64,000 nucleotides of DNA from the IMG/VR virus record IMGVR_UViG_3300017766_004544, positions 18,230-82,229 of that record. One strand, 5' to 3'. Below, piece by piece: positions 3,172 through 30,147 of the stretch (its first letter is position 1; each line of letters begins with the position of its first letter). The notes beneath the pieces were generated by a model. The model made no database searches and was not told where the DNA came from. It was given only the letters and a program-made list of their open reading frames with translations. Made by a program: the position numbers and the translations under genes. The stretch is from a virus. Taxonomy: Duplodnaviria > Caudoviricetes.

Positions 3172-3885
3172 GTGCAGCCTGCTTTCAAGGTCGAGCGTGT
3201 CGCTGCGACGGAGTGCCCGCAGCAACTGATCTACATCGCGCTGCATAACGACTACTCCGAGGACTTCATTGCTTCGACAGGGCTAGCCGAGGACGACTGC
3301 GGCAAGATCGCTGTAGAGCGTCTCCTCAAGGGCGGCAAGGGGCACTGGGGTCCGCTCGAGCACCCGCAACTCACCCTGGCCCTCAAGGCCGATCACAACA
3401 CCTTGATGCAGCTGCGCACTCACCGCGTCGGCTGTTCCTATGACCTGCAATCGATGCGCTATTCGGGGCAGCGCATCGAGAAGGTGGCATCCGGCGAAAT
3501 CCCCATCGAAGACGTCTTCTACGTCCGTCCGCCCGGCAAGTACCGCGACCGTCAGGGCGATCCCTACGAGTGGACCGAAGACGACGTGGAAGAAGCCCTG
3601 GCCATGTCGCTCTCCTCGGCCATCGACTACGCCCGCCTCCGGGAGCGTGGTGTTGCCGAGGAGCATGCCCGAGGTGTGCTGATCACCAACTATTTCCAGA
3701 ACGCCATCGTCTCCGCCAACCTGCGCGCCTGGCTGCACCTGCTCGACGTCCGCCTCAAGGGTGATGCCCAGTTCGAGATCCGCTGCCTCATGGATCTTGT
3801 CGCCGGTCAAGTGCAGCGCTGGGTGCCGGAGGTCTATGGCTGGTACTCCGAAAACCGCCGCGGCAAAGCACTCCTCGCCCCCTGA
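3172..3885 (+). CDS. thyX: Flavin-dependent thymidylate synthase
   Basis: GHWGPLEH, QLRTHRVGCSYDLQSMRY (THR variant of the RHR-x7-S motif), EEHARGVL, NLRAWLHLLDVR. Confidence 0.9.
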   Translation: MQPAFKVERVAATECPQQLIYIALHNDYSEDFIASTGLAEDDCGKIAVERLLKGGKGHWGPLEHPQLTLALKADHNTLMQLRTHRVGCSYDLQSMRYSGQRIEKVASGEIPIEDVFYVRPPGKYRDRQGDPYEWTEDDVEEALAMSLSSAIDYARLRERGVAEEHARGVLITNYFQNAIVSANLRAWLHLLDVRLKGDAQFEIRCLMDLVAGQVQRWVPEVYGWYSENRRGKALLAP

Positions 3886-3888
3886 TTC

Positions 3889-4332
3889 ATGCCTCGCCCC
3901 TCCAAGATCGAACTGCTGTCGCGCTTCTTCCCTGAAATCAGGGAGAAAGTCACCAAGGCCGACAAAGAGCAGTCCATTGCCTACAACACGCTGGCCTGCG
4001 AGGTGGTCCTTGCTGACCTGCTGCGCCTCTATGACAAGGGCTTCTCTGCCCATGGCCCCGGCACGCTCTGCGTCCGCCTGCACCAGGGGGCCGGCGAGAG
4101 CAGCTACCTCGCCCTAGCCGACCTGCGCGCCGACCAGGAGCAGGCCCGCGCTGCCGGCGAAAGCGGCATCGAGTCCTCCATGAAGGCGATCGTCGCCGAG
4201 ATCGAGCGCATCAACCCCGAGAAGGCTGGCCTGGTGCTGATGGTGGACAACAGCAGCATCCAGCTCTTCCCGATCGATCGCGAGTACCCGGCCCGCTCGG
4301 TCCAGGCCCTGCTCGAGGAGTTCGCCGCTTGA
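3889..4332 (+). CDS. Hypothetical protein
   Basis: Tightly packed after thyX. Confidence 0.6.
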   Translation: MPRPSKIELLSRFFPEIREKVTKADKEQSIAYNTLACEVVLADLLRLYDKGFSAHGPGTLCVRLHQGAGESSYLALADLRADQEQARAAGESGIESSMKAIVAEIERINPEKAGLVLMVDNSSIQLFPIDREYPARSVQALLEEFAA

Positions 4333-17917: not shown

Positions 17918-18808
17918 TCAAGCGAAGTTCGGCGCCAACCGCGCCAATACCTCGGAACCCGACTTGACGTAATAGACGAGCAGATCAATTGCACCGCTGG
18001 TACTGGTGATGCTCGGGGTGCCACTGCTGAATTTCCAGTAGCCCCCATAGCTGACGGTGTAGGGCCCGCCGCTGGCTGGCTGGATCAACTCCACGACTCC
18101 CGATTGCCCAGCGGCAAGACCTGTGGGATTGCCCAGCACGATGTTCTGGTCCAGCACGCAACTGAAGTAATTGCCGCCACTGAAATCCGGCGTCACGGTG
18201 GCCGCGCTGACCAAGTTGACCACCGCGCCGCGCTGGGCGGCAGTGAACAGCTGAACTTGGTTCAACAAGGCCAGGGTGCCACTGGCATCGGGGATGCCGA
18301 TGTCGCGATCAGCCGTAGGGTCCGCCACAACAAAACGGGTCTCGAAGCCGTTGGCGGTGGCTCCCTCGAAGCTGAGCTGGTAGCCCGCGCCGATCTCGAC
18401 ATTGCCACTGAAGATGCCGCCGCTCTGGGGCATCGCCGCGGAGGCCAGGTCGTAGGCGGCCTTGACCGCATTGGGTGTTGCAGCTGTGGTTGTACTGGTA
18501 CTACTGGTCGAATCCGTAAGCTGCAGAACACCTGCTCCTGTGGTCGAGCCGGCGACCACTCGCGCTGCATTGATTGTCTGCGTCGTCGCCTGATTGATCA
18601 GGTTGACCTGCACATCCGCTGTCAGCTCCGCCGGCGCTCCGCCAGTGCCGTAGCGACCCAGTACGGTGTTTGCCGACATGGGAGAGAACATCCCAAAATC
18701 CAGTGGCACGACTGGCCATGCTCCCGCCCCGACCGGATCGGCGAACAAACGCTGGTTGACGCGATCGACGTATAGCGGCCTACGCTGAGGATCCGTATTG
18801 CCAGCCAT
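17918..18808 (-). CDS. Tail fibre protein
   Basis: GVLQLTDSTSSTSTTTAATPNAVKAAYD phage tail-fibre repeat. Confidence 0.75.
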   Translation of the reverse strand: MAGNTDPQRRPLYVDRVNQRLFADPVGAGAWPVVPLDFGMFSPMSANTVLGRYGTGGAPAELTADVQVNLINQATTQTINAARVVAGSTTGAGVLQLTDSTSSTSTTTAATPNAVKAAYDLASAAMPQSGGIFSGNVEIGAGYQLSFEGATANGFETRFVVADPTADRDIGIPDASGTLALLNQVQLFTAAQRGAVVNLVSAATVTPDFSGGNYFSCVLDQNIVLGNPTGLAAGQSGVVELIQPASGGPYTVSYGGYWKFSSGTPSITSTSGAIDLLVYYVKSGSEVLARLAPNFA

Positions 18809-24213: not shown

Positions 24214-24645
24214 TCAGCCGACGTAGATCAGATCGGCACCGATCACCTCGTCCCAATCCACGCGGCCAATGCGCTTGAGCTGGTCAAGATTAGAGAAGCG
24301 TTCACCCGACAGACTCAGACGCAGCTCCACAATCTTCTTGGCGGTGCTGTAGCCAATGCCCTTGACGACTTTCGCAATCGCTTCAGCAGAGGCGGTATTG
24401 ATGTTCAGGCGGGTGTCCACCGGAATCACGCTCTCGGGCACGGCATCCTCATCGGCAGGCTGCTCAGCGGATTGCGGCTTGGGGCCATCGCCAACACGCC
24501 CCTTGCCAGGCTCGTAGGCCACAAGGTCGGCGAGGGCGAGATACTGCACCGCGCCAGCGGAATTGCGGATCATGGCCCAGTCCTTGTCGTGGTGGGCGAT
24601 GAACTCAACGATCTGACCGTTCTTGGTGTTCTGGTACAGCGCCAT
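24214..24645 (-). CDS. Helix-hairpin-helix (ComEA-like) DNA-binding protein
   Basis: RLNINTASAEAIAKVVKGIGYSTAKKIVELR...FSNLDQLKRIGRV. Confidence 0.8.
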   Translation of the reverse strand: MALYQNTKNGQIVEFIAHHDKDWAMIRNSAGAVQYLALADLVAYEPGKGRVGDGPKPQSAEQPADEDAVPESVIPVDTRLNINTASAEAIAKVVKGIGYSTAKKIVELRLSLSGERFSNLDQLKRIGRVDWDEVIGADLIYVG

Positions 24646-24656
24646 AACGCACAGAC

Positions 24657-24686
24657 AAAAAAGGGCGCCTGTTCAAACAGACGCCC
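24657..24686 (-). terminator. Intrinsic terminator after the capsid gene pair
   Basis: Minus strand GGGCGTCTGT-TTGA-ACAGGCGCCC followed by T6. Confidence 0.8.
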
Positions 24687-24719
24687 TCATTGTAGGGACA
24701 AACCCTCAGATCACAGAGA

Positions 24720-25358
24720 TCAGGACTCGGTGATGTAGGGGATGCTCACGTCATTCAGCTCGGCCACGGCATCGTCGAGGTAGTAAGCCACCTCGCAGAT
24801 GATGGGGGTGCCACCAGTCAGGCTGGAGGTCAGGGTCGAGCCGGCTGCGGTGCCGGCGCTGCTGGTCACGAAGACCTTCAGGGTTTCGGCGCCAGTCAGT
24901 GCCACAGGAGTGATCACAGACTTGCTGGCAGCCACGGGGGCCACGGTGCCGCTAGCCACGGCGATGGTGGCGCTGTTGGTCGACAGAGTTGTCGCGGTCA
25001 GCGCATCATCGTTGCCGATGGCGTCAGCCAGCTTGATCCGGTTGGTGTTGGTGCCAACCAGGCCAGAGAAGGCGGTGCCCACGCCACGGTCCTTACGCAG
25101 GTCAGGCACACGCACGCCCAGGTAGTAGACGTTGGCGCCAGCAGGCAGGGTCAGGCCAGTGATGTCAGCACGGGCCTTGTCATCACCGCGCTTATCGGGC
25201 GAGGGGATGATCACATCGAAGCTGGTGCCGCCGGTGGCGTTAACCAGGGCGTAGCCAGTGATGTGGTAGTACACACGGCCGGGCAGGCAAACCGCGGGCT
25301 GGCCCTGGTAGGAGCTCAGGCGGTTGACGTAGTTGCCGGGGTAGATCTTCTTAGCCAT
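24720..25358 (-). CDS. Putative capsid decoration / minor capsid protein
   Basis: Directly follows the MCP stop and precedes a strong terminator; beta-rich. Confidence 0.55.
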   Translation of the reverse strand: MAKKIYPGNYVNRLSSYQGQPAVCLPGRVYYHITGYALVNATGGTSFDVIIPSPDKRGDDKARADITGLTLPAGANVYYLGVRVPDLRKDRGVGTAFSGLVGTNTNRIKLADAIGNDDALTATTLSTNSATIAVASGTVAPVAASKSVITPVALTGAETLKVFVTSSAGTAAGSTLTSSLTGGTPIICEVAYYLDDAVAELNDVSIPYITES

Positions 25359-25374: not shown

Positions 25375-26099
25375 TCAGTACACGAACGAGTAGGCCACGG
25401 TCACGAAGTCCTTGTTCAGGATCTCGAAACCGGCGAAGAGCGACCAAATCATGATGATAAAGCGACTGAAATCGTCGTTATTATTCAACAAGATCTGAGC
25501 GTTGTTGCCGCCGATGCCAACGCCCACGGCCTGAGGACCGAAGAACAGCATCGGAGCAGCGGTGGTCACGGCGCTGGTGATAGAGGCATCAGCGATCGTG
25601 ACCTGCAGGCTCTTCTCGGGTAGGTTGGTGCTCTCGAACCAACGGACGCCCTCAAAGAGGAAGCCCGAGGGCATCACGGCCTGGCCTGCCACGAAGCCGG
25701 CTTGACCGTAAGCAGGGCCCATGCCACGGAAGAAGCTGGCATTGGGGGCCAGTTCGGGCTGCATGGGGTTGACCATGCCATTGCCTGCATAACGAGCGAT
25801 CTCACGGAACGCATCGTTCTGACGCAGGTGCATCATTGCGGTGGGGTCCGCGATGCAGCGGTAGTACCCATCGGCGAAGGTGGGCACGTTGCGCTTACGC
25901 ATGTCCTTCACGACCTCGAGGAGGTCGGTCTTGACATCGAACTTGGCGGATTCGCCAGCTGCGTAGGTCAGGAAGGGGGCAGAAGCTGCCTTGGCCTTCT
26001 TCAGGGGGTAGAAGTAACCACCCTTGGTGCTGTCAGCTGCGCCATTGGCTTCAGCTTTGAAGAGTTCGTCGGCAAAAACCCGGTCACGCCAGCGCCTGT
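25375..26099 (-). CDS. Major capsid protein, exon 2
   Basis: Begins AC|AGG CGC TGG after the intron's terminal G and reads RRWRDRVFADELF... in frame into track ORF 25375..25911. Confidence 0.85.
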
Positions 26100-27296
26100 C
26101 ACTGCTGCCCCGAAGGGCCGCGAGGCTCTTTATCCTCGCGCTTGCTCTTTGTCATCGAGCAAGGTTAGACTATATCTTCACCATCCTTGAACTTCTGAAG
26201 ACCCCCTTGAACGCGTTGGCGCGCGAGGCGCTTGACGCGCTGACCGATTCACTCTCCGACAAGGAGATTGGCGAGCTCTATGGCCTGTCGAGGACGGCGG
26301 CCACCCATCATCGCAAAGCCGCTGGTGTGCGGTCGTTTGCTCAGAAGCACGGTCGACGCAGGTACGCCGACAGTTACGAGCGAAAACCTGGAGCCCAACG
26401 CGCCGTCAGCTATCGCCGCGAGATTCGCGAAGATTTCTTTCGCCAGATTGATACCCCCGAGAAGGCGTACTGGCTGGGCTTCCTTTCGGCCGATGGCTGG
26501 ATTGTCACCGAGAAAGGCGCCTTGAGGGGCGTTGGCCTTGCTCTGCATGAGAGAGATCAGGGCATCTTGGAGCAATACGCCCAAAGCGTTGGGTTCCCCG
26601 GCCCTCCCACTCGGGCTCGAGCAGGCTCACCGCTAATGCAGGTGAAGTTCACGAGTCCGGCCATGGCCGCGGATCTCGTGGCCCATGGGGTCACTCCCAG
26701 GAAATCTCGCACAATTACGTGGCCCGAGCTACAGAGTCGCCTACTCCGCCATTACGCCAGAGGCGTATTTGACGGCGATGGGTCAGTCGGGCGACGCCCG
26801 AATGGCTCTCTGGCAGCGCAGCTCACGACGGCAAGCGAGGCGTTCGCATATGGCTTCAAGTCGTGGGCCGACCCCGCCCTACCCCGGGAGACCTCCGTGG
26901 GTAAAGACAGGAATACCCACGTCTTGCGCTGGTACGCCGATAACGCCCTTGCTTTCGCCGGGCTCCTCTACGAGGGCACGACATCCGAGCGCTTGCGACT
27001 GGAGCGCAAGTACAGGGTCTTCTTCAGTTGACAAGGTGCAGGTGCGGGGCACTCGTGGGTCCGTTACCGAGTTTCCTCTCGGGACCTAGTCGTTGAACCT
27101 TCCGGCTTGTTGGCCGGATTGGCTGCTGATTACCCATGCGGCGTCAGGATTTTTAAGCGTTCACGATTGCCCTTCCGGGCTGCGTTGTAGCTCCTGAACC
27201 TATTCCGACCGCTGGCGTGATCGGGAAGGGCTTCCAGCAATTCACCCCGTGTTGCCCTAGGCGTTTCCGCCTAGGCGACCACAAGCCTTTCGGCCG
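26100..27296 (-). ncRNA. Group I self-splicing intron (1197 nt) in the major capsid gene
   Basis: P1 with U.G at the 5' splice site; IGS GCUUGUGGUC pairs both exons; P AAUUGCUGGAA, Q AAUCAGCAGCC, R GUUCAACGACUA, S AAGAUAUAGUCU; P9 hairpins; terminal G. Confidence 0.92.
26207..27031 (+). CDS. LAGLIDADG homing endonuclease, antisense within intron loop L8
   Basis: AYWLGFLSADGW and HYARGVFDGDGSV motifs, N-terminal HTH-like LSDKEIGELYGLSR; TTG start inferred. Confidence 0.85.
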   Translation: MNALAREALDALTDSLSDKEIGELYGLSRTAATHHRKAAGVRSFAQKHGRRRYADSYERKPGAQRAVSYRREIREDFFRQIDTPEKAYWLGFLSADGWIVTEKGALRGVGLALHERDQGILEQYAQSVGFPGPPTRARAGSPLMQVKFTSPAMAADLVAHGVTPRKSRTITWPELQSRLLRHYARGVFDGDGSVGRRPNGSLAAQLTTASEAFAYGFKSWADPALPRETSVGKDRNTHVLRWYADNALAFAGLLYEGTTSERLRLERKYRVFFS

Positions 27297-27714
27297 AGTC
27301 ATCCAGCAGAGTCAGCGAACCGATCGACTGGTGGAAAACATTCAGGTTGCCGGTGTCCAGCAGCAGGCGCTGGGCAGTCAGCAGGGTTTCCCGGGCCACC
27401 TTGAAGGTGGAGGGGGCGGAAGTATCGGTCGGATCAGCGGGGCCGGTGTACTCCTTGAGAGTCACCAGCACCTTATCCTTCACGATCGAGCGCGAAGATG
27501 CAGTGCCGAGGGTCTGATCAGCGGTACGCTCACGGCTGTCCTTGGTGCCAGGGGCACCCCAGAAGCGGTAGCGGTCAAGCTGAACAGTCTGGCCGGGTTG
27601 CTTGGCGAAGTCGTGCACAACCACGGGCTCGACCGCCATCTCCACGATGTACGAGGGATGGGGCCGATAGAGCTCGGCACCTAGCAGCTTCGGAAAGTCA
27701 TTGTCAATCCACAT
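27297..27714 (-). CDS. Major capsid protein, exon 1
   Basis: MWIDNDFPKLLGAELYRPHP...GQTVQLDRY...LTLLDD+T; 418 nt + 725 nt gives a 380-aa ORF; position and size fit an HK97-fold capsid. Confidence 0.85.
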
Positions 27715-27795
27715 GGGATGAAATGTCCGAGCGACAAGTGTGCGAGAAGGCACGCAAGGCGCCTCCTGGGGCTTACTATAAAACAGTCTCGTAGT

Positions 27796-28557
27796 GTGAA
27801 AAAGTTGGACGCCACAGACGTCCGGGGCCTGCTCAGCTTGTTGCTTGCTGATGGCAGTTTGGTGCCATATCGCAGTCCTGGAGGGGGATATATCCAGCTC
27901 ACGCTGACAGCCGGCGCAGCGGAGTCCGCGTTTCTCGAGGAGAAGGTCGCCGAATTCCGCCAATTTGTGCCGACGCAGGCGCAGATTGTTCACTACAAAA
28001 CCAAGCCGCGCGCCAACGGCCAGAGCACCTCGGTGCTGCGCTTTCGGGTGTCATCGACTCGCCTGCGCCCCGTCTACAACTTGCTCTACCCAACCGGGGA
28101 GCGTGAGATCAGCCAGACCGCACTCGACATGCTGGGCGCTCAAGCCGCTGCCTGGCTCTGGGCAGAAGGGGCACGGCTGCACCCAGAGGGCTACGTCGAT
28201 CTTGCCCGGGTCGGCAGGACCTTCGATGAGGCCCTGCGGGTCTGCCAGTGGATTGGAGTCTTGACCGGCGCGGAGGCAACGCTGGCCGATACCCACATCC
28301 AGCCTCGCCTGCGCTTCCAAAGGCGTGAGGCCAGCAAGATCCGCAAGGCCCTGCTGCCCTACGCACCGGCGAGTCGCATTCACTTATTCAAAGAGGAAGT
28401 CTGGGATGTCAGCCTCATTCGTAGCGCTCGCACTGAGCTACTGCTTGGGGAGGGGGACCCTTGGCCTCAAGGGGGCGAAGAAGCGGCCGTGGCTCGAGAT
28501 CAAACGCCGGGAGACGGACTTGACCTACCTGAACCACCAACTGCGCATGCTCCATAA
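27796..28557 (+). CDS. Free-standing LAGLIDADG-like protein
   Basis: VRGLLSLLLADGSL and LGAQAAAWLWAEG motifs; GTG start inferred. Confidence 0.7.
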   Translation: MKKLDATDVRGLLSLLLADGSLVPYRSPGGGYIQLTLTAGAAESAFLEEKVAEFRQFVPTQAQIVHYKTKPRANGQSTSVLRFRVSSTRLRPVYNLLYPTGEREISQTALDMLGAQAAAWLWAEGARLHPEGYVDLARVGRTFDEALRVCQWIGVLTGAEATLADTHIQPRLRFQRREASKIRKALLPYAPASRIHLFKEEVWDVSLIRSARTELLLGEGDPWPQGGEEAAVARDQTPGDGLDLPEPPTAHAP

Positions 28558-28966
28558 GGCGCATGACGGCAAGCTCGAAGCGGTCTCGGACATCGTCCAG
28601 GCCGAGGGCTTCTATGACGACCGGCGGATTCGCGTCCACAGCCCTGATCTGTACCGCGTCTACGACCTGCTCTTCTTCCGGGATGAACGCCGCCTGACGC
28701 CTGAGATTCTCCAGATCGCTGGCATGCAGGGTCTGGCTGCTCTGTGGTGCGATACCGGCACGGCCTCGCGCCGCAAGGTCGTTCTGCGGTCCTGGGCCAG
28801 CCTCGAGGAAACGCAGTATCTACGTGACTGGGTTGTGGGCTTGGGCTATCTGCCGTCGCTTGTGCAAAAGGGGCGCCTCGAGTTTCAGGGCATCTACGCC
28901 GATGACCTCATTCACGATCTCAGGCAGCTCATCCCCCGCTGCAAGCTGCCAACTCTGAGGCGTTAG
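28406..28966 (+). CDS. Second free-standing, degenerate LAGLIDADG-like protein
   Basis: ALSYCLGRGTL and QGLAALWCDTG motifs; overlaps the upstream gene by 152 nt. Confidence 0.6.
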   Translation: MSASFVALALSYCLGRGTLGLKGAKKRPWLEIKRRETDLTYLNHQLRMLHKAHDGKLEAVSDIVQAEGFYDDRRIRVHSPDLYRVYDLLFFRDERRLTPEILQIAGMQGLAALWCDTGTASRRKVVLRSWASLEETQYLRDWVVGLGYLPSLVQKGRLEFQGIYADDLIHDLRQLIPRCKLPTLRR

Positions 28967-29182: not shown

Positions 29183-29347
29183 ATGGCTCAGCAAGGAGTC
29201 CCCGACGATCAGCAAACCGGTTGCGACCTACCCGGCGCAGGAGCTGAGCAGGCCGCCGATCCACTCGATTCCGGCATGCGGCGCAAGTTCCTGAACTTCT
29301 GCCAAGAGAATCCCTGGGCCGACGAGTGCCGCATCTATGAACTCTGA
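29183..29347 (+). CDS. cp12: CP12-like miniprotein (54 aa, absent from the ORF track)
   Basis: Translated by hand, ends FLNFCQENPWADECRIYEL (CP12 C-terminal C-x8-C); stop overlaps next start (TGATG). Confidence 0.7.
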   Translation: MAQQGVPDDQQTGCDLPGAGAEQAADPLDSGMRRKFLNFCQENPWADECRIYEL

Positions 29348-30147
29348 TGGCACTAACCCAGACCCGAGCTTACGAAGACATCCGCACCAGCTACGGCGGC
29401 AGTGATACAACACTGCCCTCTTTCTTGAGGCCGTACTACGTCCAATACAACTCCATCAGCAAGTCGCGCGACCTCGGCCAGACGGACATCCTGGTTGCGG
29501 ACCTCGCTGGCGAAATTGGATCAGAAGCCGGGAGCAACACTCTGTTCTTCAAGGTGTCCCTGCCGCGACGCGTCGAGCTCAGTGTCCGCAAGCGCGCCAG
29601 CGGCGCCAGCACCGACCGGTTCCTCAGTGTTGGCATTCTCGATGGCGAGCGCAAGCCAATTCAGTTGGACGCCAGCGGCTACGCAACCGAGTGCGACGTC
29701 TACGGTACAGAAGCGTACGAGAACCTACTGGGCGTACCAGCGGGGACTTATTACATCACAGTTGCCAGCAGTCAGTGGCAGCGCATTCCTTTTGCGATCA
29801 CGGTCTCCGTCGGGCGGTACGCACTCTTAAGTGGTGCCGCCCAGGGAGCCTTTGTCCCCGGCGGTCGTATTCCACTGGTCAAGGTCATCGCAACCGCCCA
29901 GGGCAGTGCTCCACTGGAGGGGACCCTTCTGCGGCCCAGCGTGATCAAGATGCCGCAAGGCCCTGCAGGGGGTACCGCAACGCCAACCCTGACTCTTTCG
30001 ATTATGCGCGGGGTTGCCACCGGCAGCATGGTGCCTACAGGCCGTCTGATGATGAACTGGAAGCTCAGCGGAGTTGCCAGCGGGGGCGATCAATCTCAAG
30101 GAACACTCAGCAGCGAAGCGCCGTATGGCGGCGGCTACGGTTACTAA
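29347..30147 (+). CDS. Putative structural protein
   Basis: 266 aa, beta-rich, coupled to the cp12-like ORF. Confidence 0.6.
   Translation: MALTQTRAYEDIRTSYGGSDTTLPSFLRPYYVQYNSISKSRDLGQTDILVADLAGEIGSEAGSNTLFFKVSLPRRVELSVRKRASGASTDRFLSVGILDGERKPIQLDASGYATECDVYGTEAYENLLGVPAGTYYITVASSQWQRIPFAITVSVGRYALLSGAAQGAFVPGGRIPLVKVIATAQGSAPLEGTLLRPSVIKMPQGPAGGTATPTLTLSIMRGVATGSMVPTGRLMMNWKLSGVASGGDQSQGTLSSEAPYGGGYGY

Follow-up and report, generated by a model that had tools for sequence, protein, structure and literature searches.

A gene for an intron-borne endonuclease has to be expressed without damage to the ribozyme on which the safety of the host gene depends. To our knowledge, phage solutions to this problem have been worked out only for sense-strand genes such as that of I-TevI in phage T4, where late promoters and a sequestered ribosome-binding site keep expression in check. 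The account in PMC3073962 gives the same two limits on the expression of sense-strand phage intron endonuclease genes. The T4 td intron with I-TevI and the introns of Staphylococcus Twort-like phages and Bacillus phage 0305phi8-36 (ORF036) resemble the element analyzed here in being group I introns with an endonuclease gene in a peripheral loop, where it is kept from disturbing the ribozyme, and the Staphylococcus and Bacillus phage enzymes are distant homologues of the protein described below (26-31% identical). In all of these phage cases, however, the gene is on the sense strand, whereas the strand is inverted in the window, the 64,000-nucleotide stretch of IMG/VR record IMGVR_UViG_3300017766_004544 that we analyzed (positions 18,230 to 82,229).

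The His-Cys box enzyme I-DirII is like the window's enzyme in that its gene lies antisense to the host intron. That gene, in a nuclear rDNA group I intron of Didymium iridis, is expressed from its own promoter (Johansen et al. 2006, as cited in PMC3073962), and it is one of the antisense nuclear rDNA cases to which the first-pass annotation of the window had alluded. Unlike the window's gene, it is eukaryotic, with an RNA polymerase II promoter, a spliceosomal intron, and a poly(A) tail, and its host gene encodes rRNA rather than a protein.

The first-pass annotation was aware of no example in a phage capsid gene, yet one has been published: gp13/gp14 of mycobacteriophage LittleE (PMC3706429). 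The capsid gene gp13 contains an 819-bp intron that is spliced in vivo, as shown by RT-PCR and protein sequencing (Pope et al. 2013, PMC3706429). As in the window, a major capsid gene is split by a group I intron, with a U at the end of exon 1 and a G at the end of the intron (GenBank JF937101), and a LAGLIDADG ORF, gp14, lies wholly inside the intron on the bottom, opposite strand, a layout that we checked in JF937101. There is no sequence relationship between gp14 and the window's protein (BLASTP E = 0.07): gp14 has 177 amino acids and one stretch matching Pfam LAGLIDADG_3, whereas the window's protein has 274 amino acids, two motifs, and a helix-turn-helix. The gp14 ORF lies 3′ of the entire ribozyme core (core 1259-1462, ORF 1465-1998 of L128), whereas the window's ORF is in loop L8, and LittleE is an actinobacteriophage, whereas the window's virus is a cyanophage. 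Judged from these comparisons, the two layouts are analogous, not homologous. In the LittleE record, gp14 (L128 1465-1998; JF937101 9064-9597) is annotated as an HNH endonuclease; it matches LAGLIDADG_3 with 23.3 bits (cut-off, 22.5), and the 2013 LittleE paper assigns it to LAGLIDADG (PMC3706429).

The source record of the window is a complete 82,229-bp IMG/VR virus with direct terminal repeats at its ends, of which the window is a part. The phage collection contains a single cultured relative of this virus, Synechococcus phage S-EIVl (KJ410740), which has the same neighboring genes and a homologous capsid protein (81% identity of the exon 1 protein to its N-terminus and 61% identity of the exon 2 protein) but neither the intron nor the endonuclease gene. 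Two − strand ORFs of the window, 27271..27993 and 25375..25911, both match a single uninterrupted 383-aa ORF of S-EIVl (L001 3581-4732). The split gene and its insert have the following parts.

27775..27802, − strand: candidate promoter of the capsid gene (TTTTCA, 16 nt, TATAGT), a consensus match only
27297..27714, − strand: exon 1 of the major capsid protein gene, with ATG at 27714; its last base, the U of GAUGACU, is base 1 of a split Tyr codon
26100..27296, − strand: group I intron of 1197 nt, inserted after GATGACT, with its last base, G, at 26100
25375..26099, − strand: exon 2, including the stop codon; it starts ACAGGCGCUGG and matches phrog_1357, major head protein (E = 2e-16)
26207..27031, + strand: homing endonuclease gene, 274 codons long if TTG 26207, the first canonical start, is used; the product has an N-terminal helix-turn-helix and a pair of LAGLIDADG domains

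The S-EIVl capsid ORF is uninterrupted across the window's break point and reads ...SLTLLDDYRRWRDRVF... there. Removal of the intron yields a frame that is colinear with the S-EIVl capsid gene and with the 76 related capsid loci, fetched from IMG/VR, that have no insert at the split codon, all of which read ...LLDDYRRWRDRVF...; the spliced junction, LLDD-Y-RRWRDRVF, agrees with all of them. Left unspliced, the exon 1 frame meets a stop nine codons inside the intron. A second intron upstream of 27714, suspected from the ORFs at 27718-28966, was ruled out, as the S-EIVl capsid start aligns with ATG 27714.

Several features of the surroundings are recorded here in their own right. In the S-EIVl record, the 383-aa major capsid ORF is unannotated (L001 3506-4732, equal to KJ410740 60784-62010) and is overlain by a wrong-strand CDS, AHV82227, and a partial CDS, AHV82228. 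Just upstream of the window's capsid gene, divergent from it and co-oriented with the intron endonuclease gene, are two overlapping LAGLIDADG_2-like ORFs on the + strand (27718..28557 and 28325..28966 within 27718-28966; Pfam E = 5e-05 for the first). They are absent from S-EIVl; since homologues (39-95% identity) occupy the same position in most related capsid loci, they are fixed in the lineage rather than sporadic. On the − strand at 24648-24748, between a gene ending at 24720 and a gene starting at 24645, there is a sub-threshold match to Rfam suhB/mmgR (29.3 bits versus 41), also found in L083; it consists mainly of a GC-rich hairpin and a U run and is probably an intrinsic terminator. 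Finally, a 54-codon ORF at 29183-29347 on the + strand has an ATGA overlap with the next + strand gene (29347..30147) and looks like a real small gene.

The insert has the parts of a group I ribozyme. With the Rfam model Intron_gpI (RF00028), cmscan aligned 27301..27039 at 38.9 bits (E = 2e-07); the 0.8-kb insert in L8 breaks the alignment and so keeps the score under the gathering value of 50. At the gathering threshold the whole window had no Rfam match, and the intron appears with an E-value threshold only. The aligned elements are P1, P2, P3, P4-P6, P7, an extra hairpin between P7 and P3′, which is as in phage IA-type introns, and then P3′. The corresponding intron of L083 aligns from end to end (49.3 bits), with the 0.8-kb insert located in the P8 loop; that of L085 scores 47.3 bits over its full length, and the endonuclease-deleted copy in L131 scores 60.3 bits, over the gathering score. 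The U.G splice-site pair is present: GACU at the end of exon 1 (27300-27297) is matched by GGUC (27280-27277) in P1, and the intron ends in the G at 26100. The guide sequence and the elements beyond the aligned region are as follows.

27277..27285, − strand: internal guide sequence CUUGUGGUC, in which GGUC pairs with the exon 1 end GACU (P1) and CUUGU pairs with the exon 2 start ACAGG (P10)
27015..27044, − strand: P8 5′ strand (CACC, CCUUG, AACU, GAAGACCC), the last 17 nt of which coincide with the final five codons and stop of the + strand ORF
26179..26204, − strand: P8 3′ strand (GGGUCUUC, AGUU, CAAGG, GGUG)
26100..26178, − strand: J8/7, the P7 3′ strand (GAAGAUAUAGUC), P9 with a conserved GAUGACAAA loop, two further 3′ hairpins, and the terminal G, placed by the nine-intron alignment and by cmscan of L131

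The extension of P8 that the first-pass annotation described could be read throughout (CACC/GGUG, CCUUG/CAAGG, AACU/AGUU, and GAAGACCC/GGGUCUUC). Across nine copies of the intron, compensatory changes are found in P2 (AGGC/GCCU to GACAG/CUGUC) and at the base of P8 (CCUUG/CAAGG to UCAAG/CUUGA), and the P8 extension occurs as GAAGACCC/GGGUCUUC, GAAGAUCUC/GAGAUCUUC, and GAGAAUCC/GGAUUCUC; the copies with compensatory P8 changes are those of L085, L134, and L135. P10 covaries with the 3′ exon (CUUGU/ACAGG in the window, CUGGU/ACCGC in L085, and CCUGU/ACAGG in L136). The L9 loop, GAUGACAAA, is unusual and stays constant in the nine introns while the P9 stem covaries. By these structural signs, the insert in the capsid gene is a group I intron, and we predict that it is self-splicing.

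The endonuclease ORF (26207-27031, + strand) lies wholly within this intron and is read from the strand that does not encode the ribozyme or the capsid protein, so the opposed orientation that had been noticed at first inspection stands (listed ORF 26024..27031 on the + strand, exons and intron on the − strand). The listed frame, which is open from 26018, after an in-frame stop at 26015-26017 inside exon 2, is the sole long frame in the intron; no sense-strand open frame runs across the endonuclease gene, where each of the three sense frames has 12-13 stops. Seven CTA/TCA codons occur within the gene. The encoded protein matches Pfam PF14528 LAGLIDADG_3 (33.3 bits versus a cut-off of 22.5) and phrog_4645, endonuclease (E = 5e-41), and it has 136 homologues in a large protein collection. 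Because a sequence search of solved structures returned best E-values of only 0.7-0.95, a fold search was needed. An AlphaFold2 model built on 35 homologues (pLDDT, 88.7) has three short N-terminal helices, a disordered linker, and two alpha-beta-beta-alpha-beta-beta-alpha domains, and the top Foldseek matches are all LAGLIDADG endonucleases or maturases with probability 1.00, including I-Tsp061I, bI3 maturase, I-AniI, I-OnuI, and PI-SceI. Three regions of the protein can be delimited.

26246..26320, + strand: N-terminal helix-turn-helix region (DSLSDKEIGELYGLSRTAATHHRKA); three short helices in the model and a weak match to a phage repressor helix-turn-helix
26456..26506, + strand: LAGLIDADG motif 1 (YWLGFLSADGWIV; LGFLSADG, catalytic D96); D96 and G97 are invariant in 35 homologues
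26747..26794, + strand: LAGLIDADG motif 2 (RGVFDGDGSV, catalytic D191); 31 of 35 homologues have D191, and all have G192

Both LAGLIDADG helices end in an acidic residue followed by Gly (SADG with D96 and DGDG with D191), and the acidic motifs are thus intact, as the first-pass annotation had it (LGFLSADG, D96; GVFDGDG, D191). In the model, the N-terminal sequence SDKEIGELYGLSRTAATHHRK looks like a helix-turn-helix, and the protein is predicted to fold as a monomeric two-motif LAGLIDADG enzyme with cleavage activity.

Substitution patterns point to strong purifying selection on the endonuclease, with a dN/dS of about 0.05-0.2. Relative to L083, the 40 codons after TTG 26207 have a pS of 0.55 and a pN of 0.045, and the dN/dS of the helix-turn-helix region is ~0.05. 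For the remaining 234 codons, the values are 0.48 and 0.085 against L083, and they range over 0.48-0.74 (pS) and 0.09-0.42 (pN) across comparisons. The 35 in-frame codons before TTG 26207, which are antisense to P7′, P9, and the 3′ hairpins, have a pS of 0.11 and a pN of 0.094 against L083 (dN/dS, ~0.8) and so look non-coding. From the change at this point, constraint at the protein level begins at ~26195-26216.

The start codon itself is less clear. In-frame TTG codons of the window are at 26207 and 26216, and no canonical start is common to the relatives. L083 has TTA at the position of TTG 26207, and the first 48 codons of its open frame include no ATG, GTG, or TTG; the position aligned with open-frame codons 30-31 reads TTG TTG in L084, GTG in L085, and CTT CTG in the window. 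No ribosome-binding site is evident for the ORF. TTG 26207 is our best call, not a settled one, and the true start may lie anywhere within about 26195-26216. Of the proposal that TTG 26207 follows the stem, the position stands, at 2 nt past GGGUCUUC; as a start it is not conserved.

The first-pass annotation also held that the gene fills L8 exactly. The stop codon (27029-27031) does directly adjoin the CCUUG strand of P8 (27036-27032), and the fit between stop and P8 is identical in L083 and L084, so the proposal describes the window's sub-lineage well. The last five codons (RVFFS), however, are antisense to AACU..GAAGACCC, and the ORF therein overlaps the P8 extension; in L085 and L134-L137 it runs farther, toward and into P3′/P7.1. 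Measured from the P8 5′ strand, the ORF overshoots by 3 nt in L136 and L137, by 26 nt in L135, and by 56 nt in L134 and L085, where the end falls inside P3′ and the P7-P3′ hairpin. Ends at 3 to 56 nt past P8 indicate that coding overlap with the opposite-strand ribozyme is tolerated. An exact fit in L8 is therefore a trait of one sub-lineage and not a conserved rule.

Seven related contigs have the same backwards layout, with endonucleases 43-85% identical to that of the window (L083, 85%; L084, 76%; L135, 55%; L134, 52%; L085, 45%; L136 and L137, 43% each). A survey of orientation in related introns, which had been proposed at the outset, thus gave a uniform result: in every close relative that was placed on DNA, the gene is antisense at the same capsid site. 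More distant homologues (25-37% identity) occur in other phages; some, from Staphylococcus phages and Bacillus phage 0305phi8-36, are annotated as intron endonucleases on the sense strand. For several of these distant loci, core-motif regular expressions suggested same-strand ribozyme cores just downstream, of which cmscan confirmed that of L119 only. In L119 (3001-3903), a distant homologue with 30% identity lies directly upstream of a same-strand ORF-less group I intron (Rfam 49.6 bits, 3660-3903) and may be a free-standing endonuclease beside an intron. In the wider family, then, sense or adjacent arrangements exist.

Closely related capsid genes are found in three allelic states: without an intron, with an intron and its gene, and with an intron from which the gene is deleted. 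The last state is represented by L131 (1507-1955) and the identical L132, in which the same intron at the same site is 449 nt long after a 748-bp internal deletion that left ~12-14 codons at each end, out of frame; this intron is a textbook degeneration stage of the homing cycle. The nearest intron-less allele, L003, encodes a capsid protein identical to that of the window over exon 1 (100%) and 98.8% identical over exon 2. In a comparison with L003, mismatches in the spliced coding sequence amount to ~2% over most of the first 700 nt, but the 60 nt immediately 3′ of the insertion site contain 14. This cluster looks like a co-conversion tract left by homing, and it could equally reflect intron loss in L003 by recombination. 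Five of the nine alleles with the intron have the 3′ flank ACAGGCGCTGG, and a sixth has ATAGGCGCTGG; ACAGGCGCTGG is missing from all 80 alleles that lack the intron. Pairing in P10 may select for this flank. Among close relatives we thus find what marks a mobile intron, namely, presence/absence polymorphism at one site together with a mismatch tract.

The capsid genes of this group have further irregularities. A second patch of mismatches with L003, 19 in 90 nt, covers nt 870-960 of the coding sequence (listed as the window 26390-26480 region), distant from the intron site, and suggests further mosaic recombination inside the capsid gene. Relatives also carry capsid introns at several different sites (three each in L084, L055, and L136 and two in L046, L085, and L137); the other introns are all ORF-less, with lengths of 210-390 nt and Rfam scores of 52-92 bits. 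In this group of phages, the capsid gene is a hot spot for such introns.

How the backwards gene is expressed has to be considered separately. Upstream of it, for ~12 kb, there is no + strand ORF of at least 150 aa except those that are simply antisense to − strand structural genes. Given this and the purifying selection on the protein, a separate + strand transcript of the endonuclease gene is a logical requirement, and such an RNA would of necessity be complementary to both the capsid pre-mRNA and the excised intron. A consensus scan, which returned 2 sites in 4.1 kb versus 0.9 expected, places one candidate in the 3′ part of the intron.

26149..26178, + strand: candidate sigma-70-type promoter of the endonuclease gene (TTGTCA, 18 nt, TATCTT), from the consensus scan only

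The candidate -10 hexamer is complementary to the near-universal GAAGAUAUAGUC (J8/7-P7′), and the -35 hexamer to the L9 loop GAUGACAAA. The -10 hexamer and the spacing are unchanged in 9 of 9 introns and the -35 hexamer in 8 of 9 (TTATCA in L136), and the same bases are also constrained as RNA in their role as ribozyme elements. As a promoter, TTGTCA-18-TATCTT is therefore suggestive only. No terminator was found downstream of the ORF.

We propose, with good though not complete confidence, that an S-EIVl-like cyanophage carries here, in its major capsid gene, a mobile group I intron with an autonomous antisense homing endonuclease gene in L8. This proposal draws on where the intron begins and ends, on its ribozyme core, on the fold of the protein and its catalytic residues, on purifying selection, on the layout in relatives, on the gene-deleted derivative, and on the recombination tract. 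The gene would have its own + strand promoter within the 3′ portion of the intron (TTGTCA-18-TATCTT at 26149-26178 being the likeliest), and translation would start near 26195-26216. In a mixed infection, capsid alleles that lack the intron would be cleaved by the enzyme around CTGGATGACT/ACAGGCGCTGG, and their repair would transfer the intron to them along with part of the flanking exon sequence. The reversed orientation would keep ribosomes from ever travelling along the ribozyme and would also uncouple endonuclease expression from late capsid transcription, which is very strong. The observation made in the first-pass annotation is thereby confirmed overall, and its interpretation is supported in part.

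A different view of expression, which we regard as unlikely, is that the endonuclease is real and expressed, but from a start farther upstream, in the antisense of exon 2, or from a phage-specific type of promoter, possibly with a non-canonical start codon such as CTG 26195. The frame is indeed open from 26018, right after the exon 2 stop, the TTG of L084 and GTG of L085 align with codons 30-31 (CTT CTG in the window), and the promoter scan barely exceeds expectation; yet the 35 codons before TTG 26207 look untranslated at a dN/dS of ~0.8, and the -10 hexamer and spacing inside the intron are kept in all nine copies, with the -35 hexamer in eight. That the ORF is a silent relic or a chance open frame, unexpressed in GC-rich DNA, is very improbable: the excess of pS (0.48-0.74) over pN (0.09-0.42) across 234 codons, together with Pfam, PHROG, and fold matches that are all to LAGLIDADG enzymes and the 136 homologues, speaks against a suspicion that arises from the 62% G+C content of the window, in which long spurious antisense ORFs are common, and from the want of an evident ribosome-binding site or conserved start.

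The protein could also have a main role other than homing, as a maturase for the capsid intron or as a weapon against co-infecting relatives, the latter being what is reported for the PhiPA3 intron endonuclease (PMC11620839). Such a shift would agree with the maintenance of the gene under purifying selection down to 43% identity, with the presence of bI3 maturase and I-AniI among the best structural matches, and with the need of a capsid gene to splice very efficiently. We nevertheless find it quite improbable, given that both catalytic Asp residues are retained, that the intron of L131 and L132 persists without the protein, and that a recombination tract lies at the insertion site; maturase or weapon roles are, moreover, compatible with homing.

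Beyond the homing proposal, the arrangement invites a more elaborate reading, which we offer tentatively and, taken as a whole, with more doubt than belief: a timing circuit in which ribozyme elements double as an antisense promoter. The L9 loop, J8/7, and the P7 3′ strand might serve on the other strand as the endonuclease promoter, allowing early synthesis by the host RNA polymerase. Head-on transcription of the capsid gene and abundant excised intron RNA might later silence the endonuclease, a shut-off by the excised RNA being conceivable because it is perfectly complementary to the endonuclease mRNA. The P8 extension, for its part, might bring the two ends of that mRNA together, by pairing of its 5′ leader with its 3′ end, and so reduce translation.

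The finding leaves the catalogue of known element types unchanged, as a backwards endonuclease in a phage capsid intron is already known from LittleE; the lineage represented by the window is an independent and well-populated addition to that one published case. Throughout this lineage of cyanophage capsid introns the reversed orientation has persisted, even as the protein has diverged to 43% identity. The intron-less alleles, the alleles with intron and gene, the gene-deleted alleles, and the putative co-conversion footprint together make a good natural system for asking how and when an antisense endonuclease gene is transcribed in a bacterial virus, whether the excised intron silences it, and why capsid genes might favor this orientation.
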